In this document: positions 29,459 to 50,696 of the stretch, in pieces
Position numbering within the stretch: the stretch's first letter is position 1
Layout of the letters: every line of letters starts with the position of its first letter
Origin: an uncultured Rhodospirillales bacterium
GTDB taxonomy: Bacteria; Pseudomonadota; Alphaproteobacteria; CAAGCB01; CAG-977
Assembly: GCA_902777205.1 (NCBI GenBank)
Contig: CACYSU010000003.1
Span: forward strand, 95,492-159,491
Length of the DNA stretch: 64,000 bases
Direction: 5' to 3'
Program-made: the position numbers and the translations under genes
The notes under the pieces: model-generated
Databases searched by the model: none
Told to the model about the DNA's origin: nothing
The model's input: only the letters and a program-made list of their open reading frames with translations

Positions 29459-30531
29459 CGCTTGAGGACTTGTTTCAAATCGCGCCATATTCTTTGAACA
29501 AAGCCGAAAAGGATGCGGCTTTAAAGGATATTTTAAACGACCTGACACGCCGTCATTATGCGGCTTGCCCCGAATACGCGCGGATACTGGACGCGCTGAA
29601 GTTTGACACGGCGCAAAATCACGATTGTGCGGACTTGCCGTTTTTGCCCGTCCGGCTGTTCAAACAGTTCGAATTGCGCTCCGTCCCGAAAGAGGAAATC
29701 ACGAAAACGCTGACATCATCGGGAACGTCGGGGCAGGCGGTGTCCAAAATCTTTTTGAATGCGGACAATGTGCGTTCCCAAACCAAAACGCTGAACGAGA
29801 TTATTTCTTCTTTCATCGGCAAACAGCGTCTGCCGCTGTTGTTGCTGGATACGGAAATGATTAAAAAAGACCGTTCGATGTATTCGGCGCGCGGCGCGGG
29901 CATCATCGGATTTTCAATTTTCGGGCGCAACAGCACTTACGCGCTGGACGCCGAGATGAACATTGATGTCGACAAAGTCGCCGCTTTCTTCGATGAACAC
30001 AAAAACGAACCGATTTTGATGTTCGGCTACACCTATATGATCTGGCAGTTCGTCGTGCGCGCTTTGGAGGAAAAGAACATTTCCTTTAACGCTCAAAACG
30101 CCGTGTTGTTCCATATCGGCGGGTGGAAAAAGCTGAAAGATCAGGCGGTCGACGCGTTGGAATTCAACCGCCGCGTCCAAGGACGTCTGGGCAACGTCAA
30201 AGTGTATAACTATTACGGTATGGCGGAACAGTTGGGATCGGTCTTTGTCGAATGTGAACACGGGCATATGCATTGCTCGAACTATTCCGACGTGATCATT
30301 CGCCGCTCGAAAGACTTTTCCGAAGCGGAAATCGGCGAAAAGGGATTGATGGAATTGTTGTCCGTTTTGCCGGTCAGTTACCCCGGACACGTTCTGTTGA
30401 CCGAGGACGAAGGGGAAATTCTGGGCGTGGACGATTGTCCGTGCGGCAGAAAAGGCAAGTATTTTAAAATCCACGGGCGCATCAAGAGCGCTGAATTGAG
30501 AGGGTGCAGTGATACCTTTGAACGGCGTTGA
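29455..30531 (+). CDS. luxE: LuxE-like acyl-protein synthetase
   Basis: LPFLPVRLFK, SSGTSG, GGWKK, NYYGMAEQ, LLTEDEG, ELRGCSD. Confidence 0.88.
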   Translation: MTLEDLFQIAPYSLNKAEKDAALKDILNDLTRRHYAACPEYARILDALKFDTAQNHDCADLPFLPVRLFKQFELRSVPKEEITKTLTSSGTSGQAVSKIFLNADNVRSQTKTLNEIISSFIGKQRLPLLLLDTEMIKKDRSMYSARGAGIIGFSIFGRNSTYALDAEMNIDVDKVAAFFDEHKNEPILMFGYTYMIWQFVVRALEEKNISFNAQNAVLFHIGGWKKLKDQAVDALEFNRRVQGRLGNVKVYNYYGMAEQLGSVFVECEHGHMHCSNYSDVIIRRSKDFSEAEIGEKGLMELLSVLPVSYPGHVLLTEDEGEILGVDDCPCGRKGKYFKIHGRIKSAELRGCSDTFERR

Positions 30532-31690: not shown

Positions 31691-32811
31691 GGAATTTTAT
31701 GGCAAACGACCAAGATAACCACTTATATAATATAGACTTGTTAAGATTTCTGTTTTCATTGGTGATTATCAATCATCACCTTTTTGTAAAGCCATTTCTG
31801 TTTGTCACAATGAAAGGACAGATTCCTTTGTTGAACAGTATTTGGGCAAAATCTTTAAAAGGTTATCTCGGTGTGGAATTCTTTTTTATTCTGGCCGGAG
31901 TATGGCTGGGAAAAACGATTGAAAGCAATAATCTTGACATAAAAACTTTTGTTCAACGGAAAATCATACGTCTATGGCCTGTATTGGCATTTTCGATTTT
32001 ATGTTTTTGGATAGTGTCTTTATTCGGATTAACAAAATTCCAAAAATACAGTGACGTATTAAACCTGCTTTTTTTGCAAAGCAACGGTTTGACATTGAGC
32101 TTCGGGGATAATGAAACCGCCTGGTTTGTCTCCTGTCTTTTCTGGGTCAGCATTTTTTATTTTTCTTTGTATAAAACGATTCAAAGTAAATCGTTTTATT
32201 TTATTGTTTCTATGATTGTTTATTTTTGTTTTGTTTTAATGATAAACAATAAATCCGGTTCTTTTAACTGCCATCTGAAACCTGTGATCTTCTCTCTTTT
32301 TAATTTCGGAATGATACGTGCCGCCGCGGAAATCGGGTTGGGCATAGGTCTGTGGAAAATATTTTCAGCCTTATCGGAAAAAAATTCTGAGCCGTCATTA
32401 ACGTCGAAAATATTGTACGGAAGCGCTGAGCTGTTTTTACTTATTGTTATATTTAATAATTTGGCTTTCCGACATTTTAAATTCGCAAACGATTTGTTTT
32501 TAACGTTAGCCATTGCCGGTCTGATTCTGTTGTTTATGTTGAAACGCGGCGGATTATCATTGGCGTTAAATCAGAAATTCTTTGGAAAGCTTGGAGCTGT
32601 TTCATATTCAATATATATGATGCAGGAAGTTTTCTTTGTCTTTTTAGCAAAAGGACTTTCCGTTTATTACAACAAATTATTAACCGCTCCGGACAGCGTT
32701 ATTTTGACTGTTTATATCGGATGTTTGATTGCGCCTGTCTGTTTAGGGACGATTACCTATGCTCTCGTGGAAAAACAAAGTGTTATCAGGATGTTGAGGA
32801 GGAACAAATGA
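31687..32811 (+). CDS. Acyltransferase family 3 (OafA-like membrane O-acyltransferase)
   Basis: IDLLRF, GVEFFFILAG, RLWP, AWFVS, SYSIY; about 10 TMs; AT-rich. Confidence 0.85.
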   Translation: MRNFMANDQDNHLYNIDLLRFLFSLVIINHHLFVKPFLFVTMKGQIPLLNSIWAKSLKGYLGVEFFFILAGVWLGKTIESNNLDIKTFVQRKIIRLWPVLAFSILCFWIVSLFGLTKFQKYSDVLNLLFLQSNGLTLSFGDNETAWFVSCLFWVSIFYFSLYKTIQSKSFYFIVSMIVYFCFVLMINNKSGSFNCHLKPVIFSLFNFGMIRAAAEIGLGIGLWKIFSALSEKNSEPSLTSKILYGSAELFLLIVIFNNLAFRHFKFANDLFLTLAIAGLILLFMLKRGGLSLALNQKFFGKLGAVSYSIYMMQEVFFVFLAKGLSVYYNKLLTAPDSVILTVYIGCLIAPVCLGTITYALVEKQSVIRMLRRNK

Positions 32812-34254
32812 ACAAAAAACAAATACTCAAAAAGCCGGTGAAAAAAGTCTATTTTATGTTTCCCTGCTATGCTATTGGTGGGGGAGAATTACTAATTATC
32901 CGTATTATAGAGCATCTTCTTAAATACACGGACATTAAAGTCGGGATTATTGATTTTTCCGATGGAACACTGTATCGGACGTGTAAAAAGTTCTTTCCGG
33001 AAAATGATATCGAATATATCGAGTATCGTCAGTCTTCTTGGAACCTGGAGGACGATGCCGTCATTTTTACATCGGCGGATCATTTAGGATGCATCAAACC
33101 GCATACGGGGGAAAATGTGCGTATCAGCATTATCCTGTGGGAAAACGGTATTGCCTGGAAAACGTTGTTTGAAAAACGCAAAATCCCCGCTGTTTCCAAA
33201 CTGATAAATCAAAACGATGCAATGTGTTTTATGGATTACGGATGTTATACATCCGGTTGCCGACAGCTGAATCAAGTTTTCGAAAAAAACTATTTACCGA
33301 TTTTTTTCCAGAAGCCGGTTTATCAGCATTTCGATAAAAAGACTCCGGATAATGAAATTAATATGATCTGGCTTGGCAGGCTTTCAGAAGCAAAAGAGCA
33401 ATCTATTTATAATATAGTTGAAAACTTCTACAACTATAAGACGCAAAAAAAAGAAAGTATTTCACATTATCGGAAACGGAACGCAGGAACATATAATTAA
33501 AAAAAATCTGAAAAAATATGAAGATAAAATAAAATTTATTTTCACTGGCGTTATTACCGGTGATGCATTGTTTCAATATATACGGGAAAATGCTGATATT
33601 GGTGTCGCAATGGGAACATCGGCGTTGACGTTTGCGGCTTTAAAAATTCCGGTATTAATGGCACACGAACACCCCACGCCTTTCTTTTCCAATGAATTCG
33701 GATGGTTGTTTGATATGTATGATTATTGCACCGGATCGCCTGTCATAAAAGACGAATTTACATTGCCGATGTTTCAGAATCTTTCAAGTTTTGACCAACT
33801 GCTTGACGACATTACTTTAAACGGGAAAAAAGAGCCAATAGGCAAAAAATGTTTTCAATACTATGCAGACAAGCACAATGATTTGAAAAAAACGGCGCAA
33901 GCTTTCATAGATTGCGTCGGCAAAACGACATTGACCTATGAAATGTTGAAAAAAACATTAAAGTTCATGCCGTACGACGGAAGAGACGGATTAGAGATCT
34001 ATAGATACAATATTATGGGGCTTCCCTTTTTAAAGGTATTCTATCATGGATATACAAGACAATACTATATTTTCGGATTAAAGGTCTTTAAAAGAATATC
34101 GACGCCGCAATGTTTTAAATTTTATCTTTTTTTCATCAAGGTTTTTCAGATCAAACGATGGGGACGTTACTCTTTTCCGTCGACCACATCAGAGACCATT
34201 CGTGAAGAATGTAAAGACAAATACGCCATAAACGATCTTTATTATAACGAATAA
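32808..34254 (+). pseudogene. Glycosyltransferase-like gene split by a frameshift in an A8 tract
   Basis: ORFs 32808-33500 and 33418-34254 fuse (..NYKTQKKKVFHIIGNG..) if one A is removed from A8 at 33445-33452; GT-B-like motifs GGGEL, WLGRL, MGTSAL. Confidence 0.7.
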
Positions 34255-34265
34255 GGTAAAAAGTA

Positions 34266-35105
34266 ATGAAAACAAAATATGCAGTTTCTCTGGGCCTTGA
34301 TTGTGCTATGGCCGGTTTGCTGAAAGATGCCGGCGTGAGAGCTTTTTCCTCTCCATTCGACTGGCTTGACAGTTCAGATGCGAAAACCAGAGTTTCTCTG
34401 ATTGAAAGTGAATTCAAAGACTTTCTCAATATAGAGGATTTGGAACAAATCTTTATTGAAAATGATCCTCAGAGGGGGGGGATGGACAGGTATAGAAATA
34501 ATCGTACAAAACTCTGTTTCCATCATGATTTCAGAAGTGATTTGCCTTTTGAAGAGGCCTATAAAAAAGTGGCTGAAAAATATAACCGTAGAATTAAAAA
34601 TTTTTTAAATGTCTATCGCCAGGATTATAAAGTTACTTTATTTGTTCTGGATCGGTTTTCACAAATGGATGACCAAAGCATTAAAGATGTTTTTGACACG
34701 ATTAAACAGTATGTTGTTGTAATATCAAATTGTGATACTGTTGACAAAGATTCATATGTTCAAACAAAAATCACAGACCACATATTTCATTATAAGGTGA
34801 ACAACACTCCGACGGATGTAACGGAAGCTTTTCAAAAATTCAAAGGAAATATCCCCATTATAAAACAAATAATTTTACAGCACACTAAGAAGAGTAATTT
34901 TTTTGATAAAAAAACATATAAATGTTATAAATGGTTAAGGAAAAAACTGTCCGTATGTGTAGCTAAAAATGAAATGTCATTTTCAGACAAACTTTTATTT
35001 CGTATTTTTTGCTGTTTTCGAAAAAAAATTCTATTCACGCCTCTTGTTAAAGACAGAAAAGAGGATTTTTCATTATATGAATCTTTGATAAAGTTATGCA
35101 AATAA
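34266..35105 (+). CDS. DUF1796-family protein (putative papain-like)
   Basis: VSLGLDC, SSPFDWL, FHHDF, KYNRRIKNF; contains a G8 tract at 34474-34481. Confidence 0.75.
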   Translation: MKTKYAVSLGLDCAMAGLLKDAGVRAFSSPFDWLDSSDAKTRVSLIESEFKDFLNIEDLEQIFIENDPQRGGMDRYRNNRTKLCFHHDFRSDLPFEEAYKKVAEKYNRRIKNFLNVYRQDYKVTLFVLDRFSQMDDQSIKDVFDTIKQYVVVISNCDTVDKDSYVQTKITDHIFHYKVNNTPTDVTEAFQKFKGNIPIIKQIILQHTKKSNFFDKKTYKCYKWLRKKLSVCVAKNEMSFSDKLLFRIFCCFRKKILFTPLVKDRKEDFSLYESLIKLCK

Positions 35106-35146
35106 GGGTGCGTTACCGTATCAAGCGGTAACACACCCTTTTCTTT
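35104..35146. terminator. Intrinsic terminator between the convergent glycan operon and tail-fibre genes
   Basis: AAGGGTGcGTTACCG...CGGTAACaCACCCTT followed by TTCTTT. Confidence 0.75.
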
Positions 35147-35474
35147 ACGGTTCTTCGGGAAATTCGCAATGTTCCGGAAATCCGGATTGAAGAGGAATAT
35201 CCCGCAGAAACTGGCGGTAAGTTGCGTATTTTTCTTTCATTTCCGTTGTTACGGGATAATCGGGCAGCATATATTTGTCTGTTTCTTTCAACAGGAGATT
35301 CCGCCGTTGTCTTATGTCGACGGCCAGTTCTTCGGCACTTTTTCCAGGGAAATCGGCAAACTGAAGATTTCCCTGTTCATCGATCGCCAGCGTTTTTCCT
35401 TTTTCATTCGCTTCGACGGCTTTTTTTGCATACAACTCAGGATTTTCAAGAGAAAATTGATACAAAGTCTTCAT
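35145..35474 (-). CDS. Phage tail fibre assembly chaperone-like protein
   Basis: IRQRRNLLLKETDKYMLPDYP..YRQFLRDIP.Q.GFP....P..P motif. Confidence 0.85.
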   Translation of the reverse strand: MKTLYQFSLENPELYAKKAVEANEKGKTLAIDEQGNLQFADFPGKSAEELAVDIRQRRNLLLKETDKYMLPDYPVTTEMKEKYATYRQFLRDIPLQSGFPEHCEFPEEP

Positions 35475-35491
35475 GTCTTTTTCCTTTCTGA

Positions 35492-36409
35492 TTAATATCC
35501 GCAGGCATACCAGCTGGTCGAGGTATAATTTGACCCCGCCCAGGAAATAGACGAGTTTGTCTTCTCCGTAATGGAAACGCTCTGAACGCCGTATGAATTA
35601 TAAATCACCGGCGTTGATACCACGGTGTAATTTGTATTGGAAAATGGCTTTGGCCAGGTGAACGATGCCGTCGCCCCCACAAGACTGCCTCCTTGTTCGA
35701 TCCAGCCGTCGGACCAGACACGATACCAGCTTGAACCGTTGTGCCAGCTTTGGACAATCACTGCCGGAGTTGTTTCCGCGACAGCGGAAGTTCCCCATTT
35801 GGCGACGCCGTAAACAGTTTTTGATGCGTAGACATCCTTATCTGCTTTATTTGCTAGCGTGTTCGCCGCTTCCAGCGCTTTATCTGTTGCCAGTTGAGCC
35901 TGTTCGTCCGCTGTTCGAGCCGATAGAGCCGCGTTTCCGGCTTGTTGCTCGGCCAAGGCTAACATTTCACGCGCTGTTTCCGCATAGCCTGCCGTATCGG
36001 ACACGCTTTGCCTGATCGATGGAATTAGGCTTGTAGCGTCTGTATCCTCGAACACGTCCACCGTGACCGCGCGATCTGCCTGTTCTTTCAACTGCTGTAT
36101 TTGCATCGTCAGTTTGTCGAAATCGCGTTCCAGCGTTTCGGCCGGCAAAATCTCGTTTTCACGATAGTCCGTTTCCTGCGTCAACGGCACTTCGCGCATT
36201 ATCACGATTTGCGCATTTTCCTCCGGCGCCGTCGCAAAAACCATATTCCCGTTCGAAACGGTCCAATCCGTCCGTTCCGTCTGAATGTCATTCAAAAGTT
36301 GTCTGACCGTTAAATGCTCCTTTTCCAAAAAAGGAAACGGGATCGCAAATGTCGTCGCAACCCCGTTTCCGATATAATTCACTTTGTTGGTTGTCGTACT
36401 TACCGTCAT
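35492..36409 (-). CDS. Short phage tail fibre protein (T7 gp17-like N-terminus, gp53-like C-terminus)
   Basis: N-terminal YIGNG..TTFAIPFPFL...REVPLTQETDY..LERDFDKLTMQIQQL; Ala-rich coiled linker; C-terminal SWYRVWSDGWIEQGG..WYACGY; GAGGT RBS. Confidence 0.85.
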   Translation of the reverse strand: MTVSTTTNKVNYIGNGVATTFAIPFPFLEKEHLTVRQLLNDIQTERTDWTVSNGNMVFATAPEENAQIVIMREVPLTQETDYRENEILPAETLERDFDKLTMQIQQLKEQADRAVTVDVFEDTDATSLIPSIRQSVSDTAGYAETAREMLALAEQQAGNAALSARTADEQAQLATDKALEAANTLANKADKDVYASKTVYGVAKWGTSAVAETTPAVIVQSWHNGSSWYRVWSDGWIEQGGSLVGATASFTWPKPFSNTNYTVVSTPVIYNSYGVQSVSITEKTNSSISWAGSNYTSTSWYACGY

Positions 36410-36422
36410 TTTTACCTCAAAT

Positions 36423-36448
36423 AAAAAAAAGCAGGGATAATTCCCTGC
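36423..36448 (-). terminator. Intrinsic terminator just upstream of the tail fibre RBS
   Basis: Minus strand GCAGGGA-attA-TCCCTGC followed by T8. Confidence 0.75.
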
Positions 36449-36519
36449 CGGTTCACAATCAACACGCTTCTTAAGATATAACATATTGTTATTGTTTTTG
36501 TTAAAATGTCAAGCTGTTT

Positions 36520-37251
36520 TTACCTTTCCCGTTCCGCCGACCGTTCCGCCGATCTTCTCTGTTCGTGGAGTTCGCGAAGTTGCCGGATCGTTTTGTGCTT
36601 CCGCGGAATAACCATTTGCGTCAGAGAGAAATCTCTGTCCTGAAACCGCGTAGCTTGCATCTCCCAACCGAACTCTTTGGCAACTTCGACTTGGTGTTGC
36701 CGGAGCATTTGCAGTTGTGGCTTTTTGAGTTTCAGCCGCTCCCGTCCGTTCGACATTTTCAACAAAATGTGTCCGTGCGTTGCCGATTGATGTGTGTGAA
36801 CGGCGTATAAATACCGATACCCTCTTTCCGCGAAAGGTTCCATATACCGCTCAATAAACCGGTAGGCTTCGTCCTCGCTGACGTTCATTCTTTTGGGGAA
36901 CGATACGATCAGATGAACCATTGCGTTTCCATTTTTCCGCCGCTGTTCCAGATCATAAGCGTCTATTGTTTCGTTCAGTTTTTCGGTCGGGATCAGTCGC
37001 CGTTCGTCATCATAAACACGCGCGTCCTTTTCCATTCCCTCCGAACCGTGAGCGATATAATGAGCGATGTTCTTCGCTCCCGTCGGTGATTTCACATAGA
37101 ACGCGACTTTAACCATAGCTTCGGGCGGCGGCACTTTGAAAGAAAGCGTCGCCCTCTGTCTTGCGGGCGGCGAATAGTGAACCGGAAAGCGTTGCCGCGC
37201 GACGTATATTCCTCGGATATGTTCGTCCAACCAGTTCCGTTTATTCGCCAT
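36520..37251 (-). CDS. MOBP/VirD2-like relaxase (short, 243 aa)
   Basis: EAMVKV, HYIAH (catalytic Tyr), HLIVSFP, AVHTHQSATHGHILL (3H motif). Confidence 0.85.
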   Translation of the reverse strand: MANKRNWLDEHIRGIYVARQRFPVHYSPPARQRATLSFKVPPPEAMVKVAFYVKSPTGAKNIAHYIAHGSEGMEKDARVYDDERRLIPTEKLNETIDAYDLEQRRKNGNAMVHLIVSFPKRMNVSEDEAYRFIERYMEPFAERGYRYLYAVHTHQSATHGHILLKMSNGRERLKLKKPQLQMLRQHQVEVAKEFGWEMQATRFQDRDFSLTQMVIPRKHKTIRQLRELHEQRRSAERSAERER

Positions 37252-37585
37252 AATACGCCGCCAAAAGTTTGTTGATTTTATCCCGGAGCGCGTGAAGTTC
37301 GCGACAAGCCTGCTGTAAATCCCGCAAAGTTTTTTCTTCAAGGGATTGCTTTTTTATCAACGTCGTGTTCAAAGCGCGGACGGCTTGATTGGTGTTGACG
37401 CCGACCTTTCGGGCTTGTTCTTCGAGCTTTGTCAGCAGGAGGATTTCGTCATAGTGCGGGATCTTCATCTGATGAAGCCCCGCAAGAATGAACAACCGGA
37501 TCAGGCGGGACGGAGATTGTTTTTCGGCGACAAGCGCGTCCCAAATTTCTTTTTCTATTCTGAACGATTTAACAATAAGCCTCAT
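37241..37585 (-). CDS. mobC: MobC-like relaxosome accessory protein (RHH)
   Basis: KSFRI RHH-like start, RKVGVNTNQAVRALN; overlaps the relaxase start. Confidence 0.8.
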   Translation of the reverse strand: MRLIVKSFRIEKEIWDALVAEKQSPSRLIRLFILAGLHQMKIPHYDEILLLTKLEEQARKVGVNTNQAVRALNTTLIKKQSLEEKTLRDLQQACRELHALRDKINKLLAAYYGE

Positions 37586-37656
37586 TTCAGCCTCTCTGTT
37601 TTATCGTTCAAGCGTGTGTGACGGGTAAAATTTTACAGCTGTTTGAGTGTGATTTC

Positions 37657-37810
37657 AAGGGCGGGTTGGCGGGGCATTTTTCGCTCTTTTTGTATTACAA
37701 AAAGGCTATCCTGCAAAAAAGTAGCCCTCAAGAGCATCAATCCCTTGCGAATCAGCCTTAAAACGCCTCAAAACAGCCTCAAAACTGACCGCGCCCGCCC
37801 AACCGCCCTT
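37657..37810 (+). other. Origin of transfer (oriT) with MOBP-type nick site
   Basis: TATCCTG^C at 37707-37714 matches the RP4-type YATCCTG^Y consensus. It is preceded by the inverted repeat CTTTTTGTA-t-TACAAAAAG (37686-37704) and lies upstream of mobC. Confidence 0.8.
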
Positions 37811-37876
37811 TGTTGTAGGCTATTCAAACGGTGTCGCCGCGTGTGCGGCGACCGATTTTTTTCGGGGAATACGGCT

Positions 37877-38149
37877 CTATTCGGAGCCGTATTCTTTCTG
37901 TTTGTGATAGATTTTAGGGGCGATTTTTGTTTCAAAGTAAGCCTCGAAGGCTTCGTTGAGCAGGTGCTTTTCCATCGCAAAAAACACCTCCGAAAGCCAA
38001 CCGCTTTTTGCCAAAGTCTTTAATGCGGGCAAATCCTCTTCCGGAACGTCCCCGCCGTGTATGAAGTTAAACAGGGAAGTGTCAAACTTCACGTCGGCGC
38101 GTTCTTCAAAGTCTGGTAAAAACTCCTCTATTAAATCCCAATACAACAC
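37877..38149 (-). CDS. Small acidic hypothetical protein (leading region)
   Basis: 90 aa, GTG start with AGGGAGG RBS, D/E-rich. Confidence 0.7.
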   Translation of the reverse strand: MLYWDLIEEFLPDFEERADVKFDTSLFNFIHGGDVPEEDLPALKTLAKSGWLSEVFFAMEKHLLNEAFEAYFETKIAPKIYHKQKEYGSE

Positions 38150-38152
38150 TGT

Positions 38153-38566
38153 TCAGTCCTCCCTGATAGCCTGACCGACGGGGCAAGGCGTGAAAAACAA
38201 ATCCAATTCCGCAAGCTCCAAAAGTTCGTCAACGGAGATGTATCCGGCCTCGAAACCGTATCCGAAACTCGCCCAACCGAACGCCTGAATTTGCTTTTCG
38301 GCGGTGTCTTTTTCGACGATATGGGCATCATAAGAACCGACAAAATAGTGCAGTTGAGCCAAAGCGTTTTTGCCTTGTCCGTCCGTTTCATAGACTTGCG
38401 GCATCGTTTTTATTCGCTCGGCAAGGTTCAGGATAATGTCCGCGAACGCTCCGGCTTCTTCCGAGTGATACAGATTGTCAATGAGGGTTTGAGCCTGCCG
38501 AACCGGAATAAACGGTTTAAGGGTCGTTTTCATTTCGTTTAAGGCTTGGTCGAATTTATCAGTCAT
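38153..38566 (-). CDS. DUF2958-like protein
   Basis: ETDGQG..A..HYF, AFGW..G..EAGYISVDEL..ELDLFF.P; start MTDKFD with GAAGGAG RBS. Confidence 0.75.
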   Translation of the reverse strand: MTDKFDQALNEMKTTLKPFIPVRQAQTLIDNLYHSEEAGAFADIILNLAERIKTMPQVYETDGQGKNALAQLHYFVGSYDAHIVEKDTAEKQIQAFGWASFGYGFEAGYISVDELLELAELDLFFTPCPVGQAIRED

Positions 38567-38774
38567 ATTGAAAGCTCCTTCTCTGTAAAAAGCACTTGTT
38601 AAAGGGTTTTTGGCGTCGCGCCTGAAACCCTTACGAGGTGCTTCGTCGGGGAGAAGAAAGCGGATTGTCATTCCAAGAAAAACGGAGGGGGATCACCAGG
38701 CTTGCAACGACACCGGAGCGAAAGTCGGGGACACCGTTTTTCTTCCGTTAGGCGGAGGGAATTGACAATCAAGA
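38549..38774. repeat. Structured leading-region repeat, copy 1
   Basis: Near-identical to 40337-40565; two long hairpins; includes RBS and first 6 codons of the downstream gene. Confidence 0.92.
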
Positions 38775-38814
38775 CAGAAAAAAACAAACGACTTGGTAGA
38801 AACGACCTCTGTAT

Positions 38815-39120
38815 AAAAACGACTGAGCCGTTTTGCCCCGACGCGGTCTGAAAGATAGGCGACGGTTTGCCGTCCCTTATATCTCTTATGGGGTCATTAT
38901 AAGCATAGAGTTTTTTTACAAAGAAAAAACGAACCCGTCACCTGACCGTGACGGGTTCTGAAAGATGGGTGCGTAATGTGCCCCCTTTATCTCTTATGCA
39001 TTTATTATAAGCATAGAGTTTTTCTTTTACAAGTCTTTTCTATCTGATATATTCCCTTTGCCGCACATACGGCTGAAAGGGGGTGAATAATGTGACCACC
39101 CTTTATCTCAAAATGGCGGC
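38815..39120 (-). ncRNA. Three tandem sRNA-like hairpin units (putative)
   Basis: Plus-strand CTGAAAG at 38848, 38958 and 39073, each flanked by hairpins. Minus-strand TATAAT in two units, with TTGTAA-17-TATAAT at 39004-39032. An 11-bp stem plus U-tract lies at 38921-38958. Confidence 0.5.
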
Positions 39121-39177
39121 GTATTTGTTGTTGATAATAGCATTACTGCTTGAAGTCATCAATAAATAACAAAGCCT

Positions 39178-39215
39178 GCCCGTGATGGTCTGACCGCTGT
39201 CACGGGCGTTTTTTT
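39178..39215 (+). terminator. Terminator-like hairpin
   Basis: GCCCGTGA...TCACGGGC followed by GTTTTTTT. Confidence 0.5.
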
Positions 39216-39290
39216 CTATCCGTTCGGGCGCAACTGTGTTGTGGAGTGGTTGGGCGAACGGATCGGGCGGCGGAAACCCCGCCCGAATTT

Positions 39291-39452
39291 TTAGAAATAA
39301 TAGGTCGTCTTTTCCAAATCATCGCGCTTGTATCCCTGCGCGATCAGTTCGTAAAATTTCGACAGTTGGGCGGCTTTGCTGTCAAAGTCAAAATGTTCTT
39401 TTTCGTAGCCGTCCGCGCCGTAAACCGTCAGTCTGAAAAAAGCAATCTTCAT
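39291..39452 (-). CDS. Small hypothetical protein downstream of ardC
   Basis: 53 aa MKIAFFRLTV...; GAGGAGG RBS; followed by a GC hairpin at ~39263-39286. Confidence 0.65.
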   Translation of the reverse strand: MKIAFFRLTVYGADGYEKEHFDFDSKAAQLSKFYELIAQGYKRDDLEKTTYYF

Positions 39453-39481
39453 TGTTCTTCCTCCTCTTTTGAGGGAAGCGG

Positions 39482-40354
39482 TCAAGCCGCTTCCCGTCCG
39501 ATTTCCTGGAATGTCAGCAGATAGTCAAAAGCCTTTTGCGCTTCGGAGCAGGCTTTGAAAAACGCCTTTTTGTCGTTCTTCAAAACCTTGAGCCAAGATT
39601 TCAGATACGCAAGATTGTTTTTGCTGAATTGGTAGTCATAGCCCAAATATCCGGCGACAAATCCCGCGCCGATGTCGGCGATCAGTTCCTCAAAGGCGTA
39701 GGATTCATTTCCGAAATGGCCTTTCATATCCCGGTTTAAGCGGTTCTTGTGTCCGGTCGCGTGGATCGTTTCGTGCGCCAAAGTCGAAACGAAGCCCGTT
39801 TCCGTTTTGAAGTCTTTTCTTTCCGGCATTAAGACAACATTGTTTTTCGGGTCGTAGCCTGCCAAAGTCGCGCCGTAAAAATAAGTGATGTCCGTGTTTT
39901 CAAAGAACGCCATCACGTCCTTTTCAACGCTAAATTCGGCTTTTTCTATGTCTTCGCCGAATCCCTCGACTTGCGAACCGTTAAACACGGAATAAGCGCG
40001 GGCGACAAAAGCCTGATTTTCGACTTCTTCGATGTCGCCGGTTTCGGTGTTTTCGATTTCGCATTTATAGGAAAGAGGTTTCCAGAAAACGATGGTCGTG
40101 GCCTTTGAGCCTTTCTTGACCTGATAGCCTTTATCCTGCCATTGGCGATAAGTGCCCCAAACGGACGAAGAAAAACCGTTGAACAAAGCGGCAAAGTTCA
40201 AAATCAGAATGTTGATTCCGCGATACGCCTTTTTTGTCGTGATGTTCCGGGCAAAAGAGGAAATGAACGGCTTTTCCCATTCGCCCGAAAAGTTTTCCAA
40301 GCGTTCGATGATGGTGTTTGAAACGGTTTCGATGATGTCGAATTTATCAGTCAT
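39482..40354 (-). CDS. ardC: ArdC antirestriction/ssDNA-binding protein (DUF1738 + zincin-like)
   Basis: WEKPF, YRGINIL, WGTYRQW..G.QVKKG.K, YSVFN..Q, LAHETIHATGH, YAFEELIA, YLKSWL. Confidence 0.92.
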   Translation of the reverse strand: MTDKFDIIETVSNTIIERLENFSGEWEKPFISSFARNITTKKAYRGINILILNFAALFNGFSSSVWGTYRQWQDKGYQVKKGSKATTIVFWKPLSYKCEIENTETGDIEEVENQAFVARAYSVFNGSQVEGFGEDIEKAEFSVEKDVMAFFENTDITYFYGATLAGYDPKNNVVLMPERKDFKTETGFVSTLAHETIHATGHKNRLNRDMKGHFGNESYAFEELIADIGAGFVAGYLGYDYQFSKNNLAYLKSWLKVLKNDKKAFFKACSEAQKAFDYLLTFQEIGREAA

Positions 40355-40565
40355 TTTGAAAGTTCCTTCTCTGTAAAAAGCACTTGTTAAAGGGTTTTTG
40401 GCATCGCGCCTGAAACCCTTTCGAGGTGCTTCGTCGGAGAGAAGAAAGCGATTGTCATATTCCAAGAAAAACGGAGGGGTATCTCCCTCGGCTTGCAACG
40501 ACACCGGAGCGAAAGTCGGGGAAACCGTTTTTCTTCCGTTAGGCGGAGGGAATTGACAATCAAGA
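40337..40565. repeat. Structured leading-region repeat, copy 2
   Basis: Near-identical to 38549-38774; sits in front of ardC. Confidence 0.92.
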
Positions 40566-40590
40566 GAAAATCAAGGCTTAAAATATAATC

Positions 40591-40605
40591 GTTCTCTGTT
40601 TGTTC
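40591..40605 (+). promoter_or_regulatory. Alphaproteobacterial LexA (SOS) box
   Basis: GTTC-tctgttt-GTTC just after TATAAT (40584-40589), upstream of a Y-family polymerase. Confidence 0.8.
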
Positions 40606-40651
40606 TTGTTTTTAATCAACGAATCTGATAGTTTCGGATTCGGAGGAAAAT

Positions 40652-41920
40652 ATGCCGGACAAGACTTATTTGTGCATCGACCTGAAATCGTTTTACGCGT
40701 CCGTGGAATGCGTTGAACGCGGTCTTGATCCGTTTAAGACGAACCTTGTCGTCGCCGATCCCGCGCGGGGACGCGGCGGAATCTGCCTTGCGATCACTCC
40801 GGCGATGAAAGATTTGGGAATACATAACCGTTGCCGCATTTTTGAAATACCGAAAAACGTCAAATACATCACGGCTCTGCCGCGAATGAAACGGTATATG
40901 GAAGTGTCCGCGGACATTTACGGCACTTATCTGAACTTCGTCGCCCCGGACGACATTCACCCGTATTCGATTGACGAAGTGTTCATCGACGCGACCAATT
41001 ATCTGCACATCTATCATAAAACGCCGAAAGAAATGGCTGTAATGCTGATGAACGCCGTTATGGAGCGAACCGGAATATGCGCGACGGCGGGAATTGGAAC
41101 GAACCTTTTTCTGGCGAAAGTCGCTTTGGATATAACGGCAAAGCACGTTCCCGACCATATCGGATATTTGGATATTCCGGCGTTTGAACGGACGCTGTGG
41201 CATCACCGTCCGATAACGGATATTTGGAACATCGGGAGAGGAATAGCCTTCCGGTTGGAAAAATACGGCATTTACGATCTTTACGGCGTCGCCCATTGCG
41301 ACGAACGGCTTTTGTATAAAGAGTTCGGCGTCAACGCGGAGTTCCTGATCGACCACGCGCATGGGCTGGAACCGTGCGAAATCAGGGATATTCACGCTTA
41401 TAAATCCAAGACGAACTCCATATCGAACAGTCAAATCCTCTTTTCCGACTATACGTTCGGCGACGCTTTGATTTGCCTGAAAGAAATGGTCGATATGCTT
41501 TCCCTCGAACTGATTGAAAAGCATATGGTCGCTTCCGGCATCTCTCTGGGGGTCGGATATTCCCGTGATGTCGCGCCGTCAACCGGCGGCTCGGAGCGAC
41601 TGTCCGAACAGACGTCCTCTTATGATAAGCTCGTCAAAGAGTTTGAAAGCATTTATCGCCGAACGACGCGCAGGACAGCCCCCATACGCAAGCTGTCGAT
41701 CGCTTTCACAAACATCGTTGACGAAGATCACGCGACTTTACAGCCGGATTTGTTCTCTCAAAGGGAAGAAGACGAAAAAGAGCGCAAAATGCAGGAGGCT
41801 GTTTTGGCTATCAAGCAAAAATTCGGGAAGAACGCTCTGCTTCGGGGAATGAGTTATACGGAAAAAGCGACGGCGCGGGTCAGAAACAAACTGATCGGAG
41901 GACACAATGGCGGCGAGTAA
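40652..41920 (+). CDS. Y-family (UmuC/ImpB/UvrX-like) error-prone DNA polymerase
   Basis: CIDLKSFYASVEC, YSIDEVFID, GIGTNLFLAKVALD, C-terminal KFGKNALL..RNKLIGGH. Confidence 0.92.
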   Translation: MPDKTYLCIDLKSFYASVECVERGLDPFKTNLVVADPARGRGGICLAITPAMKDLGIHNRCRIFEIPKNVKYITALPRMKRYMEVSADIYGTYLNFVAPDDIHPYSIDEVFIDATNYLHIYHKTPKEMAVMLMNAVMERTGICATAGIGTNLFLAKVALDITAKHVPDHIGYLDIPAFERTLWHHRPITDIWNIGRGIAFRLEKYGIYDLYGVAHCDERLLYKEFGVNAEFLIDHAHGLEPCEIRDIHAYKSKTNSISNSQILFSDYTFGDALICLKEMVDMLSLELIEKHMVASGISLGVGYSRDVAPSTGGSERLSEQTSSYDKLVKEFESIYRRTTRRTAPIRKLSIAFTNIVDEDHATLQPDLFSQREEDEKERKMQEAVLAIKQKFGKNALLRGMSYTEKATARVRNKLIGGHNGGE

Positions 41921-42251
41921 AGAAGAACGGGCGCGTCAATTCCTGCCGTTCAACGCTTTGACAGGGTATTACCGGATGATTTTGGATCGACAGCGCGTTT
42001 CCGAATCGAAAAAAGAACTGTCCAAAGACGAAACGGAAGCCTTGTCCGAAAAGATAAAGAGCCTCCGGCGGCACGACCTTGTTTCCGTAACGTATTACGA
42101 CCAGGACGCTTACATCACAAAGACGGGGTTGATTACGGATATTGACCTTACGTTCCAAACGCTGACGGTCGTGAAAACCAAGATAGCGTTTCAGGACATT
42201 TTTGACGTGGAAACACGAAAAGACTTTGCGAAAGGGCTTGAAACGGGATAA
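41907..42251 (+). CDS. YolD-like protein
   Basis: ERARQFLPFNALTGY, VTYY..AYITKTG.I..ID; overlaps the polymerase. Confidence 0.85.
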   Translation: MAASKEERARQFLPFNALTGYYRMILDRQRVSESKKELSKDETEALSEKIKSLRRHDLVSVTYYDQDAYITKTGLITDIDLTFQTLTVVKTKIAFQDIFDVETRKDFAKGLETG

Positions 42252-42287
42252 TCTGCGCTTCTGTTTATATTTTTAAGGAGTTGCATT

Positions 42288-42560
42288 ATGAACAAAGCAG
42301 AATTGGTGGCTGAAATCGCGAAGAACACGGGTTTGACGAAAGTTGATTCCGAACGGGCGACGGAAGCCTTGTTGAATACGGTTGCCGCGACCTTGAAGAA
42401 AGGCGATGAAGTTCGTTTGGTCGGCTTTGGCACGTTCAGCGTCGCCAAACGCGCTGCGACCGAAGGTCGCAATCCGCGCACCGGTGCCACGATCAAGATT
42501 CCGGCTTCCAAACAGCCGAAGTTCAAAGCCGGTAAAGGTTTGAAAGACGCTTTGAACTAA
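42288..42560 (+). CDS. hup: HU family DNA-binding protein
   Basis: MNKAELV, VRLVGFGTF, GRNPRTG..IKIPA..PKFKAGK.LK. Confidence 0.95.
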   Translation: MNKAELVAEIAKNTGLTKVDSERATEALLNTVAATLKKGDEVRLVGFGTFSVAKRAATEGRNPRTGATIKIPASKQPKFKAGKGLKDALN

Positions 42561-42580
42561 AACCGGTTTCAAAAACAGAC

Positions 42581-42613
42581 AAAGGCGTGTCCGTTCGGAC
42601 GCGCCTTTTCTTT
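42581..42613 (+). terminator. Intrinsic terminator after HU
   Basis: AAAGGCGTGTCC-gttc-GGACGCGCCTTT followed by T-rich tail. Confidence 0.8.
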
Positions 42614-42799
42614 ATACCAGAACAATATTTCCCATTTTTCCATATTTTTCCCAAAGAACGACTCTGAAAAAAGACGCAGAAATGTTGGATTGTCGGAACA
42701 AATTTTCCGATATTTCCGATTTTTCCCTTATTCCGAAGTCAGAAAAGATGCGTTTTGAGCTTAAATTTTTCTATTAGAACGACATAAATGTCATTTTTT

Positions 42800-42821
42800 T
42801 GTTAGACACTTGTTAGACACT
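42800..42821. repeat. Tandem 11-bp direct repeat, candidate integrase arm-type sites
   Basis: TGTTAGACACT x2, about 70 bp inside the tRNA 3' end. Confidence 0.6.
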
Positions 42822-42859
42822 TCGCTTTTCAGAGGAATATAGCGTTTCCTTTGGACAAC

Positions 42860-42887
42860 AAAAAACCCGCAGTATTCTGCGGGTTTT
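42860..42887 (-). terminator. Terminator downstream of tRNA-Arg
   Basis: AAAACCCGCAG-tatt-CTGCGGGTTTT hairpin. Confidence 0.8.
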
Positions 42888-42890
42888 GAT

Positions 42891-42967
42891 TGGCGCGCCC
42901 AGGAGAATTCGAATCCCCAGCCTTCTGATCCGTAGTCAGATGCTCTATCCAGTTGAGCTATGGGCGC
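42891..42967 (-). tRNA. tRNA-Arg (anticodon ACG)
   Basis: GCGCCCATAGCTCAACTGGATAGAGCATCTGACT-ACG-GATCAGAAGGCTGGGGATTCGAATTCTCCTGGGCGCG-CCA, 77 nt cloverleaf. Confidence 0.97.
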
Positions 42968-43172
42968 TTAAGCAAGTGTGTATATACCGCTTTGGAATTC
43001 GGGTTGCAAGCTTTTTTTTCAAAAAAATGCGACTTTTTTACATTTTTGATAAAAATTCTTGCAAAACAGCGATTTGTCGTTACATTCTAAAAATTGCCCT
43101 TTTTTTGCCACGGCAAAGGACGGGCGGGGAAATTGTGCAGTTTTCTTAAACTTTTTTAAGGTGTTCAAAACC

Positions 43173-44309
43173 ATGTCCATTCTGAAAAGCCTTTCCTTGG
43201 CGGCCGCCCTGCTGACGTTTACCGGCTGCTCGTCGTCCACCAACTCTTACAATGACGATTATTTCGCCGACGATTTCGCCATGCAGCCGGCGCAGACGGA
43301 GCAGAACAGGCCGGCTTCCGCCCCCGCCGCGGCAAAGGCCGAATCGCCGCGCGCCGCCGTGAACACCGCCGCGCCCGCCGCCTATACGCCCAAGGCGCAG
43401 ATCGTTTCCGAAGTCAGCAAAAAGGTTGCCGCGATCGACGCGAAGCTGGCGCAGATTCAGGAAAACATCGGCAAAAACACCGGCGTGTTTCAGGCTTTGA
43501 AACAGAAAAGCGCGGAGGAATCCCGCAACTATTATGAATTCGTCGCCCGCATTTACGCGCGTTTGCAAAACGGCACGACGCCGGGGAACCCCGAATTGAC
43601 GGAAATGTGGAAACAGGCGTCCGCCCTGCTGACCGGATCGGACAAGAACATGGCCGAAACGGCGAAGCTGTCCAGCGAAACGCTGCGTTTGAAAAATGAA
43701 TTGGACGCCCTGCTGGACACGATTTCGGAAACGTTCCAGATTTCGGGCGCGATGGAAATCGACCATGAAAACCTCAAAGCGTTGGAAGACCGCGCCAACC
43801 AGACCACCGTTTCCTTGAACCGCCTGAGTTCCGACATCGCCGCGCAGATCGCCCGCCAGCAGCAGTATTTCAGCACGGAATCGCAGAACATCAACCAGCT
43901 GGGCACCGACATTCAAAACGGCGGTATGTCCGCCGGCCGCGCGCAGCCGTCCGTCAGCGTTCCCGCTTTGCCCGCGACGCTGATGTCGCCCGCGGCGCAG
44001 CTGCCCGAAGCCAATCTGGCCGGCCGCCGTCCGTTGATGGTGATCCGGTTCAACAAAAAGAACGTCGCCTATGAACAGGCGCTGTACAAAGCGGTCAAGG
44101 CGGCGTTGGACAAGCGTCCCAACACCGTTTTCGAGGTTGTCGCGGTCAGTCCGGCCAACGCCAAATCCGGCGAATTCGAGGCGGCGAAAAACGCCGACGC
44201 CGTGCGTAATTCCCTGACGGCCATGGGATTGCCCGACAGCCGGATCTATTCCTCTAAAACGAAAAGCGCCTCCATTCAAACGACGGAAGTGCATTTGTAT
44301 TTGAAATAA
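43173..44309 (+). CDS. Lipoprotein with coiled coil and possible OmpA-like C-terminus
   Basis: Lipobox LTFTGC; long helical region; C-terminal alpha/beta domain ending TEVHLYLK. Confidence 0.75.
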   Translation: MSILKSLSLAAALLTFTGCSSSTNSYNDDYFADDFAMQPAQTEQNRPASAPAAAKAESPRAAVNTAAPAAYTPKAQIVSEVSKKVAAIDAKLAQIQENIGKNTGVFQALKQKSAEESRNYYEFVARIYARLQNGTTPGNPELTEMWKQASALLTGSDKNMAETAKLSSETLRLKNELDALLDTISETFQISGAMEIDHENLKALEDRANQTTVSLNRLSSDIAAQIARQQQYFSTESQNINQLGTDIQNGGMSAGRAQPSVSVPALPATLMSPAAQLPEANLAGRRPLMVIRFNKKNVAYEQALYKAVKAALDKRPNTVFEVVAVSPANAKSGEFEAAKNADAVRNSLTAMGLPDSRIYSSKTKSASIQTTEVHLYLK

Positions 44310-44348
44310 GACGGGCTTTTTCCCGTTTCGGACGCGAAAGGATTCTTT

Positions 44349-45608
44349 GTGGCGGCACCGGCGGAACAACAACTGATCGACTCGCTGAAACGCATTGAAC
44401 CTGTCAAAGCGGTTTCAACGGCTTTGCTGATCAGGATATCCGCCCTGAACCCCGCGAATCGCACGCAAAACCACGTTCATATGACGCAAACCGCGTTGAA
44501 CGAACTGATCATCCGGTCGCAATCGTCCATGCACGTCATGGCCAACAACGACATCGTCATCGTCGGGCAGGGCGTCCCGCCCCGATATTTGACGGAAACC
44601 GTCGATTCCGTGCGCCGGATATTCCAATCCGACCCGTTCGCCGCCGCGCGTCCGAACGATTTCATCCGGATATTCCCGCTGAACCGCGATTTCGACGCGG
44701 TTATGGATTACGCGAAAAAAAGCTTGAACGCGCTGGAAAACCAGCATGAGGACAAGCGCGAAATTCCGTTGGCGCCCGAACATCTGGACGCTATTCTGCG
44801 CAACATCCAAGGGTTCAACATCCTGAAAATCATCCGCCGGCAGGAGGCTATCCGGATATCGAACGACGGCTTTACGTCGCTGTTTTTGGAATACTTCACG
44901 TCCATGGCCGATTTGAAAAAGGCGATCGCGCCGGATGTCGATGTGCTGTCCAACCGCTGGCTGTTCCAGCATTTAAGCGAAACGCTGGACAAGCGGATGC
45001 TGGGCATATCGCGGCAGCTGATCGCCCACACGCCGAAAGATTTGTCCCTGAACCTGAACATTTCGACCATTTTCACCCCCGCGTTTGAACAGTTCCTGTC
45101 GGAAATGCCCGAGGACGCTTCCGTCGTCGTCGAAGTCCAGCTGATGGACATCATCCAGAACACGCAAAACTACACGGTCGCCCGCGATTTGCTGCACGAG
45201 GCCGGACACCGTATCCTGATCGACGGTCTGCATCCGATTTCCTTTGAGTTTATGGATATGAACACGCTGCGGCCGGATCTGATGAAAATGAACTGGTCGC
45301 CCGCGTTGGCCAAAGGCGAACAGACCGAACGCCTGCAAGAGGTCGATCCCGAAAAAATCATTTTGATGCGCTGCGAGGACGAGGACGCCCTGCGTTGGGG
45401 GCTGACGCACGGCATCCACAATTATCAGGGGTATTTCATCGACGCTTTGACCGCGGCGAAGATTCGCAAAGGCTGCCCGAATCGCAAAGTTTGCCCCGCG
45501 TCGCGTTGCCGCACGGCGAAATCGGTCATCACCGGCGCGATGCGGGCGGAATGTCTGGCGCCGCAGCGGCTGGATCTGCCCGTCGAACACAGGGAGGCGC
45601 GCGCATGA
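44349..45608 (+). CDS. Degenerate EAL-like domain protein
   Basis: LSLNLNIST, VVEVQ, ILIDG, DLMKMNW, YQGYF; lacks EAL/DDFG. Confidence 0.7.
   Translation: MAAPAEQQLIDSLKRIEPVKAVSTALLIRISALNPANRTQNHVHMTQTALNELIIRSQSSMHVMANNDIVIVGQGVPPRYLTETVDSVRRIFQSDPFAAARPNDFIRIFPLNRDFDAVMDYAKKSLNALENQHEDKREIPLAPEHLDAILRNIQGFNILKIIRRQEAIRISNDGFTSLFLEYFTSMADLKKAIAPDVDVLSNRWLFQHLSETLDKRMLGISRQLIAHTPKDLSLNLNISTIFTPAFEQFLSEMPEDASVVVEVQLMDIIQNTQNYTVARDLLHEAGHRILIDGLHPISFEFMDMNTLRPDLMKMNWSPALAKGEQTERLQEVDPEKIILMRCEDEDALRWGLTHGIHNYQGYFIDALTAAKIRKGCPNRKVCPASRCRTAKSVITGAMRAECLAPQRLDLPVEHREARA

Positions 45609-48200: not shown

Positions 48201-50696
<2,496 letters not shown>

Follow-up and report, generated by a model that had tools for sequence, protein, structure and literature searches.

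Introduction

Three classes of single-stranded DNA (ssDNA) promoter have been validated, all of them, according to PMC12672017, from IncF and IncI plasmids of enterobacteria. Frpo1/Frpo2 of the F plasmid and ssi1-3 of ColIb-P9/pESBL (class 1) are non-coding, lie in the leading region on the transferred strand (T-strand) and precede establishment or anti-defence genes that face the origin of transfer (oriT). They occur as near-identical repeats before different genes, as in F, where the two are 92% identical and ~5 kb apart according to PMC9849209, and their stable folds rebuild promoter boxes. PMC11541004 describes anti-defence islands with oriT as one boundary and umuCD as the opposite one; the large surveys outlined there find ssDNA promoters by BLAST (E < 1e-6) to five known sequences, so that other lineages would be invisible to them. 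Here we describe an element of ~230 nucleotides (nt) that occurs twice in a 64,000-nt stretch of DNA, hereafter the window, from an uncultured Rhodospirillales bacterium (assembly GCA_902777205.1, contig CACYSU010000003.1, positions 95,492 to 159,491). From the comparisons reported below, we consider it rather probable that this element is a Frpo-like promoter existing only on folded, single-stranded transferred DNA and that it represents a new sequence family.

The element resembles the Frpo and ssi elements in all the respects listed above, its folds rebuilding candidate promoter boxes. The order of its surroundings is also that of F: oriT, leading genes (in F ssb and psiB) that face oriT and are directed as the tra genes, then umuC. 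In contrast to these likenesses, there is no similarity of sequence. A blastn search of the element against 72,556 plasmid records, with F included as NC_002483, gave no match at E <= 1e-3, which leaves the element outside the Frpo sequence family. The architecture differs as well. The T-strand of the F Frpo2 region folds (-118.6 kcal/mol, z = -6.25) into one imperfect hairpin of ~330 nt that ends ~50 nt from the ribosome-binding site (RBS), and a strict scan of both strands of that region for promoter boxes found none. The element is instead made of two hairpins, ~200 nt in total, with the candidate -35 at a hairpin base, the candidate -10 in the neighbouring hairpin and the RBS inside the structure. 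Finally, its host is a gut alphaproteobacterium with an integrated MOBP mobilisable island, whereas F is an enterobacterial conjugative plasmid.

A precedent for a composite two-hairpin ssDNA promoter would be the minus-strand origin of f1/M13, in which two adjacent ssDNA hairpins are said, after work by Higashitani and colleagues in 1997 and Zenkin and colleagues in 2006, to mimic the -35 and -10 boxes for the sigma-70 holoenzyme. PMC7948647 treats the origin of M13 as a promoter-like template. This origin differs from the element in that it makes a short replication primer and not an mRNA, belongs to a phage, lacks a link to any gene start and is unrelated in sequence. The class 2 (ardA/klcA) and class 3 (M.EcoGIX) promoters of IncI1/IncF plasmids demonstrate that hairpins of unrelated sequence can act as ssDNA promoters before anti-restriction genes, with starts mapped by 5' RACE. 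As described in PMC12672017, they are large single stem-loops validated in vivo, whereas the element is a multi-hairpin candidate.

The Bacillus plasmid p576 (Reg576, PardC576) offers a parallel of another kind. It answers the need proposed for the element, brief expression of ardC and other establishment genes after transfer, and it too has a structured leader before ardC. According to PMC6294495, p576 uses double-stranded DNA (dsDNA) sigma-A promoters with repressor operators and a leader that acts as RNA, whereas we found neither a dsDNA promoter nor a repressor at the locus studied here. Our search of the literature returned no description of the element family; the papers that join ArdC with an ssDNA promoter concern Bacillus plasmids, with repressor-controlled dsDNA promoters.

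Results

Two near-identical copies are fused to the starts of different genes

The two copies of the element (Table 1) are direct repeats that align in three blocks: 38549-38662/40337-40450 (114 nt, 96% identity), 38670-38697/40459-40486 (28 nt, 93%) and 38699-38779/40490-40570 (81 nt, 96%). A BLAST search of the whole assembly found exactly two copies in this genome, the second being 93% identical to the first over 233 nt. Each repeat (~230 nt) contains the Shine-Dalgarno sequence (SD), the ATG and the first six codons (MTDKFD) of the gene that it precedes, and both genes are minus-strand open reading frames (ORFs). The original prediction, made from the letters of the window, had proposed precisely such a pair of near-identical copies, each fused to the RBS and MTDKFD start of a different gene, and both parts of it are borne out. 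Its coordinates were right to within a few bases, the repeat reaching ~5 nt further, to 38779 and 40570.

The genes concerned are ardC, behind copy 2, and a gene for a 137-amino-acid (aa) protein behind copy 1. The ArdC proteins of distant relatives begin with MK-DVY--VT, and the local MTDKFDIIETV is the same N-terminus. Since the element is associated with ArdC across the class (see below), copy 1 looks like a duplicated ArdC cassette (RBS, ATG and six codons) that was set before a DUF2958-like gene.

Folded as DNA, the + strand of copy 1 reaches -46.2 kcal/mol, compared with -30.6 ± 3.8 kcal/mol for 200 dinucleotide shuffles (z = -4.06; 0/200 as good). With the same DNA parameters, copy 2 reaches -45.9 kcal/mol. 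The sense RNA folds comparably (-75.3 kcal/mol, z = -3.71). The + strand fold consists of the two hairpins that had been proposed. The base stem of hairpin 1 holds a complement of the SD, CTCCTT (38575-80). Above this stem come an internal loop, with GTAAA (38585-89) opposite CGTCGG (38644-49), then an upper stem and an apical stem. In hairpin 2, the base stem is surmounted by an A-tract stem (38675-85/38734-44) and by a conserved apical core (GGAGGGGGATCACC ... TCGGGGACAC).

Covariation across homologs, which had been named in advance as a check on the fold, supports it. In 33 sequences, 14/34 pairs of hairpin 2 have changed on both sides, a number attained by 0/500 shuffles and by no slid register. 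In addition, 96.7% of the pairing cells of hairpin 2 do pair, as against 37-64% in slid registers. Over the whole element, double changes affect 11/64 pairs, and again 0/500 shuffles equal this. The pattern of substitutions indicates that the folded structure is under selection for intrastrand pairing.

The conservation has a sharp limit. In an alignment of 27 copies it stops a few bases past the base of hairpin 2, at TTGACAATCAAGA; the flanks beyond are unrelated, and a small palindrome, TTGA-N3-TCAA, lies at the boundary. When positions 30000-50000 of the window were searched against Rfam (E <= 1), only a tRNA and chance matches away from the element were returned, and Rfam gave no match at the element in seven related loci.

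Table 1 Features of the element and its surroundings. Positions are those of the window; in the oriT row, the slash within the sequence marks the predicted nick.
Feature	Position	Strand	Content or evidence
Element copy 1	38549-38779	+ (predicted T-strand)	Extends from the six initial codons of the 137-aa gene to 9 nt beyond hairpin 2
Hairpin 1, copy 1	38574-38661	+	DNA fold; base stem 38574-84 with 38650-61
TAAAAA, candidate -10 (non-template sense)	38586-38591	+	First four bases unpaired, in internal loop opposite CGTCGG
Hairpin 2, copy 1	38663-38770	+	Base stem GATTGTCA/TGACAATC with bulged T, then TTCC/GGAA
TTGACA, candidate -35	38762-38767	+	Hairpin 2 3' arm, 3 base pairs from the base, reads toward the gene
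Element copy 2, upstream of ardC	40337-40570	+	Hairpin 1 ~40362-40449, TAAAAA 40374-79, hairpin 2 40450-40561, TTGACA 40553-58
137-aa gene, DUF2958-like	38153-38566	-	Protein begins MTDKFDQALNEM; phrog_5203, E = 3.9e-17; nearest ESM Atlas clusters carry DUF2958, score 0.95
ardC, 290 aa	39482-40354	-	ArdC N-terminal ssDNA-binding domain (PF08401, E = 1.1e-32) and zincin-like metallopeptidase domain (PF18818, E = 3.5e-36)
90-aa ORF	37877-38149	-	ORF list; directly 3' of the 137-aa gene
Predicted oriT core	37687-37714	+	Inverted repeat TTTTTGTA-T-TACAAAAA (37687-37703), then GGCTATCCTG/CAAAA; predicted nick 37713/37714
mobC-like gene and MobA/VirD2-type (MOBP-like) relaxase gene	37241-37585 and 36520-37341	-	Pfam PF19514, PF05713, PF03432
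umuC-like Y-family polymerase gene and yolD	40652-42251	+	Pfam IMS, IMS_C, YolD; divergent from ardC

Base-pair variation and a predicted oriT point to the + strand

In the paired columns, G.T cells exceed A.C cells by 23:9 in the close family and by 29:4 in distant relatives (52:13 in total); the argument is weakened by the fact that the alignment behind the 29:4 count was fitted to a model of + orientation, and that both counts come from related sequences. The base stem of hairpin 1 varies in 29 copies by T.G pairs only (21 cells), which are A.C mismatches in the mRNA. On the 3' arm of hairpin 2, 51/53 sequences (33/33 close, 18/20 distant) have TTGAC, whereas only 9/53 have its exact complement on the 5' arm, a bulge, G.T pairs or a mismatch being tolerated at those positions. 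The pairs next to TTGAC in this base stem covary. Hence the invariance of TTGAC on one arm only, the G.T excess and the T.G-only base stem point to folding of the + strand rather than of the mRNA. Folding energy was considered as a further guide to the strand and rejected: the + strand is the more stable one in 27-28/29 copies, but base composition explains the difference (z -1.3 to +0.2), which is therefore uninformative.

The predicted direction of transfer designates the same strand. The MOBP nick consensus, from the MOBP/RP4 literature, is YATCCTG/Y (the slash marks the nick), and MOBP nicking follows a rule of polarity. Between mobC and the 90-aa ORF, positions 37707-14 match YATCCTGY with TATCCTG/C, which we take to be a predicted MOBP-type nick site. 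The window contains eight matches to YATCCTGY, compared with 3.0 ± 1.6 expected; since the 8-mer by itself is a weak indicator, the oriT call rests on position and conservation. Six relatives have a homologous oriT region, placed in each case between mobC and the 90-aa gene, and their inverted repeats differ by compensatory substitutions (TTTTCGTC-G-GACGAAAA, ATTTGTC-T-GACAAAC, TTGTC-C-GACAA). In 7/7 loci reaching it, oriT is on the strand where the element reads TTGAC, with an exact YATCCTGY in six and TTTCCTG in one. The site thus combines the marks of a MOBP-type oriT, namely an inverted repeat, a nick motif within ~10 nt and a position upstream of the relaxase operon.

With a nick motif on the + strand, and given the polarity of MOBP nicking, the + strand is predicted to be the transferred strand, entering 5' to 3' from 37714 and being the template of the 90-aa, 137-aa and ardC genes. 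The two copies of the element are located 0.86 kb (860 nt) and 2.6 kb 3' of the nick motif on that same strand. They have the leading-region placement of known ssDNA promoters, with the transferred strand as template. The T-strand had been named as the folding strand from the start, and the nick motif and the base-pair variation now support this choice.

Other conserved sequences were seen around and beyond oriT. At 37795-37897, a very conserved block of the + strand follows it (ACCCGCCCAACCGCCCTTTGTTG ... GGTGTCGCCGCGTGTGCGGCGACC and a T-run), together with a second hairpin, of 15 base pairs. Both this hairpin and the oriT inverted repeat are terminator-like on the + strand, near the 5' end of the transferred strand. 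A second TATCCTGC, at 40132-40139 inside the ardC coding sequence, is conserved in relatives; this is most likely coding conservation, with no nick site.

The element is part of a wider family associated with ArdC

In the bacterial family of the host, the element is present in 16/28 genomes, with 1-5 matches per genome at E <= 1e-5 and up to 7 at a looser threshold. All near-full copies in these relatives (46/46 rows) adjoin ArdC or the 137-aa gene. The backbone of the loci reads relaxase, MobC, 90-aa, 137-aa, element, variable cargo, ArdC, element, umuC/yolD, with 1.8 to 7 kb from copy to copy. The cargo between the copies (loci L047-L050) includes Shedu SduA, an OLD/TOPRIM ATPase with a UvrD-like helicase (Gabija-like), GmrSD and UvrD-like helicases. 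One contig carrying the element (L080, CAVCSV010000029.1) is titled Limosilactobacillus gorillae and has the nhmmer score of L016; it is probably mis-binned.

A covariance model of hairpin 2, named R1, reaches further. Among 150 alphaproteobacterial genomes, it matches in five other families, in all cases directly upstream of ArdC and on the antisense strand. These five relatives (GC content 59-73%) have CTTGAC at the 3' base and an apical core GGAGGGGGATCACCCG...CGGGGA. In 80 ArdC loci, taken as the best from 185,579 species genomes, R1 gave 26 matches in 25 loci, and 24/26 are positioned 60-240 nt upstream on the antisense strand. Within 250 nt upstream of ArdC, the motif CTTGAC is carried by the antisense strand at 47/79 loci (116-229 nt from the start codon), versus 12/79 for the sense strand; inside the ArdC coding region (600 nt), the bias is reversed, with 10 antisense and 24 sense. 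An exact-pattern scan of the 185,579 species genomes added no new lineage, 26 of its 43 loci being true according to nhmmer and 17 due to chance.

Beyond the class, a classical Frpo-like layout is seen in a Bryobacterales ArdC leader, which forms a single long hairpin where TTGACG is combined with an 18-nt spacer stem and a bubble of unpaired bases. Planctomycete and acidobacterial ArdC loci have related or analogous hairpins. Named plasmids of Sphingobium, Brucella anthropi, Agrobacterium, Rhizobium, Thiothrix and Nitrosospira also carry the core, there in stretches without listed annotation. The Tardibacter plasmid pHSL1 (MOBP) has three core copies, with CTTGCG as base motif, each 34-80 nt before the first gene of a relaxase-facing operon; the genes behind them include DUF3768 and DUF4942. 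Taken at the level of sequence, these matches suggest an element family that is broad and uncatalogued across Alphaproteobacteria and beyond.

Some of these loci have features of their own. In the GC-rich leaders (L105-L184), a hairpin with loop GCCAATGA stands between hairpins 1 and 2, and ACTAG is invariant at the base of hairpin 1. Just past TTGAC, these leaders have a small GGGGCC-GCA-GGCCCC hairpin and then a purine-rich tract; in L177, this tract is paired with the complement of the SD. In Chelativorans sp. J32 (L107, 2718-2834), ardC is followed downstream by an ALIL pseudoknot, the frameshift signal of the IS3 family (RF01497, 106.7 bits), which is ordinary. At L104, which carries a degenerate copy, a small hydrophobic peptide (MTKQSLPTILLLALIFLL...) begins at the next start, ~150 nt further.

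Candidate promoter boxes and their geometry

TTGACA on the 3' arm of hairpin 2 is a candidate -35 box, in duplex form and in the non-template orientation. For ssDNA promoters of leading regions, a -10 box is expected 16-18 nt away, typically where the strands are mismatched. The DNA fold places it 17 nt from TAAAAA along the template path and 15 nt along the non-template path. The template path consists of one unpaired G followed by the 3' arm of hairpin 1, whose base stem has 3 + 7 base pairs with an AA bulge. In the close family, TAAAA is present in 29/29 copies and TAAAAA in 28/29. Sigma-70 binds pre-opened fork junctions with T-12 and A-11. As modelled here, the composite -10 is a geometrically and thermodynamically plausible candidate.

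Three other placements of the -10 were considered in the GC-rich relatives, with hairpin 3 as a side branch, with its loop as the open region, or with the 3' purine tract paired to the SD complement, and were abandoned, as no one geometry fits all. On dsDNA, a sigma-70 scan of the gene strand found no promoter inside or adjoining either copy, and none was seen by eye in the distant relatives. An outward-facing dsDNA promoter using TTGAC was likewise rejected, since neither the two copies of the window nor the GC-rich relatives have a -10 at 16-19 nt. Since the conservation stops at the base of hairpin 2, no dsDNA promoter is conserved together with the element.

A possible translational lock

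The original prediction had added that a longer read-through RNA would pair with the SD and stay untranslated, while the RNA started on ssDNA would lack the pairing sequence. The SD complement belongs to the base of hairpin 1, which allows the read-through RNA to pair GCUUUCUUCUC with the SD. The predicted probability that the SD is unpaired is 0.01-0.06 in this RNA, versus 0.15-0.45 in RNA whose 5' end is the predicted start or lies no more than 8 nt from it. Read-through is conceivable, since promoter-like sites (39032-39004 and 39162-39134, 230-390 nt) lie upstream of copy 1 on the gene strand, in a region (150-390 nt) that also contains a terminator-like hairpin. The shorter RNA is still partly paired, and the lock would not be absolute because a weak local hairpin covers the SD. 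Moreover, natural T.G variants in the SD stem weaken the RNA helix and leave the DNA helix intact, and for this reason we read the lock as a plausible by-product rather than a selected function. Hence the burial of the SD in read-through RNA is retained as a prediction, whereas the release of the SD in the shorter RNA is partial and the RNA pairing is weakened by variants.

Neighbouring genes and limits of the island

The other genes of the island agree with a mobilisable leading region. Pfam and NCBIfam searches of the 137-aa protein gave no match, and its relatives elsewhere have no assigned function. The 90-aa ORF gave no match in Pfam, NCBIfam or phrog; its position is also occupied in relatives, and it is probably in the same operon as the 137-aa gene. 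The relaxase matches NCBIfam MobP1 with E = 5e-13, below the curated cut-off. At 273 aa, counted from a TTG start, the relaxase ORF is short in comparison with its family, relatives having 275-342 aa, and it shares ~100 nt with the mobC-like ORF; its true start is probably further downstream than listed. On the predicted T-strand, mobC and the relaxase gene would enter the recipient last.

On the right, umuC/yolD forms the far boundary of the island, and an HU gene and a tRNA (42894-42967) lie further on. On the left, phage tail-fibre-like and tail assembly chaperone genes (35145-36484) adjoin the relaxase gene. No integrase was seen between these genes and the tRNA. In the window, the DNA between the copies at 38780-39290 contains only a 53-aa ORF and short repeats, with two to three tandem ~108-nt units at 38840-39130 (repeat families D3 and D13). 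Each unit has a minus-strand promoter-like site (TTGTAA-17-TATAAT, 39032-39004) and a terminator-like hairpin (38958-38931); the units may be small-RNA genes or remnants of lost cargo.

Discussion

A Frpo-like promoter restricted to the folded T-strand would account for the element as follows. The island, from oriT at 37.7 kb to umuC/yolD at 42 kb, would be mobilised by conjugation, and the + strand, nicked at TATCCTG/C, would enter the recipient 5' end first. Folding of each element into hairpins 1 and 2 would follow the entry of ~1.1 kb for copy 1 and of ~2.9 kb for copy 2. The base of hairpin 2 would then present TTGACA as a duplex -35, its 3' arm having the non-template polarity. Hairpin 1 would stack beneath hairpin 2, with its base stem as the spacer duplex, and its internal loop would provide an already-open region with T-12 and A-11 of TAAAAA on the non-template side. 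A sigma-70-type RNA polymerase of the host could start near 38637 (copy 1) and 40425 (copy 2), ~7 nt past the bubble, and transcription would run round hairpin 1, through the SD and back toward the nick. In this way the 137-aa gene, the 90-aa gene and ardC would be transcribed into mRNA before the complementary strand exists, and conversion to dsDNA would remove structure and promoter together. As a secondary effect, RNA reading through from upstream would fold as an RNA hairpin 1 with the SD buried.

Several observations weigh against such a promoter, besides the relatedness of the sequences and the orientation of the model mentioned above. The first of them concern the -10 assignment, which is the weakest link. 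TAAAAA is a weak box (4/6 matches, without T-7), and the non-template strand is discontinuous between -35 and -10. An A-rich bulge is found at the corresponding place in only 7/20 distant relatives. In GC-rich relatives, a third hairpin with the conserved loop intervenes between hairpins 2 and 1, so that the linear -35/-10 spacing is not conserved there. Some relatives carry CTTGCG for CTTGAC. The promoter model leaves unexplained why the sequence of the hairpin 2 apical core is kept across 47-73% GC. A role of the A-tract stem as UP element was considered and found not to be general, the stem being invariant in the close family and made of GC pairs in distant relatives. Furthermore, four degenerate copies from the bacterial family of the host (L029, L033, L034, L104) have an intact hairpin 2 and a different hairpin 1 (CTTTCTCATCAAACC...); they have no TAAAA and are not followed by ArdC. 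Finally, in one library labelled as RNA, contigs of a relative cross hairpin 2 into unrelated upstream sequence; they may be DNA, and the four sequencing runs consulted provide assembled contigs of relatives, at 90-99% identity, without starts or strands. The composite promoter first proposed is thus supported by computation in its strand, in TTGAC within a covarying stem, in the 17 template nt that separate it from an unpaired TAAAAA and in the lack of a conserved dsDNA promoter, whereas the -10 assignment and the lock are plausible candidates.

The next explanation, which we judge unlikely, is that the structure works as an mRNA leader: an upstream dsDNA promoter would make a long 5' untranslated region in which hairpin 1 hides the SD, under the control of temperature, a protein or a small RNA. 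The folding of the sense RNA agrees with this, and covariation alone cannot separate DNA from RNA. The SD is in the base stem of hairpin 1 in all variants and is predicted to be hardly accessible in the long RNA, and there are promoter-like sites on the gene strand upstream of copy 1. The contigs that bridge hairpin 2 would, if they are RNA, be read-through transcripts, and a structured ardC leader acting as RNA is reported for p576 in PMC6294495. Against this, no promoter is conserved with the element, the upstream flanks of the copies being unrelated. Both G.T:A.C counts favour the antisense strand, and the changes in the SD stem are A.C mismatches in RNA. In addition, TTGAC is kept on the 3' arm of the antisense strand whereas the 3' arm of the RNA drifts, and the element has no Rfam match.

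A single-strand initiation or origin site (ssi/sso type), where RNA polymerase or a primase makes a primer for the complementary strand with gene expression as an incidental outcome, has in our view a slim chance of being the primary function. Single-strand origins of rolling-circle plasmids (ssoA and relatives) are characterised by conserved RSB and CS-6 motifs. Such a site is compatible with hairpins that carry a -35-like box on the incoming strand, Frpo is both promoter and primer site according to Masai and Arai 1997, as cited in PMC12672017, and the degenerate copies L029, L033 and L034 have no adjacent gene start. However, priming would run toward the nick and would copy the first 1-3 kb only. 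Moreover, the full copies are fused to an RBS and start codon throughout the rows examined, and each of the three pHSL1 copies stands before an operon. Priming could still be a side activity of the element.

We regard as quite improbable that the element is a regulatory region of dsDNA, in which TTGAC/CAAG and the core would be repressor operators of promoter-operator cassettes and expression would follow transient zygotic induction, as with Reg576. Establishment genes under repressor control, an ardC among them, are documented in PMC6294495. The conservation of the apical core across GC contents suggests a factor-binding site, and there is the small palindrome at the boundary. Nevertheless, the gene strand has no -10 at a workable distance, no candidate repressor gene is conserved in the island, and the covariation reflects selection for intrastrand pairing, for which a dsDNA operator has no need. 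Least credible of all are recombination modules flanking a cargo hotspot, with defence cassettes exchanged by homologous recombination and structure secondary: different defence genes do lie between the copies in relatives, at the variable spacing noted above, but the covariation, the invariant TTGAC, the fusion to gene starts and the single copies upstream of ArdC in distant taxa would all go unexplained, and such exchange is better seen as a consequence of the duplication.

A promoter confined to the folded T-strand therefore remains our preferred explanation. A stronger version of it would make the 215-nt cassette a device with two levels, a two-helix composite ssDNA promoter and an RNA lock, with the genes expressed only from ssDNA, and would see in it an ancient family driving ardC and other establishment genes across Alphaproteobacteria and beyond. 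We hold this full version to be possible, though doubtful.

The element family provides an alignable and testable ssDNA-promoter candidate in a bacterial class different from that of the known cases, on small mobilisable islands and on plasmids. Its hallmark is easily searched for: CTTGAC on the antisense strand, within a covarying stem located 120-230 nt upstream of ardC. If the element is active, leading regions and the polarity of transfer would become annotatable from sequence in Alphaproteobacteria, and the element would offer a minimal system for studying promoter recognition by RNA polymerase where the promoter is assembled from separate helices. The genes behind its copies, DUF2958-like here, DUF3768 and DUF4942 in pHSL1, would then be candidates for early establishment or anti-defence functions.

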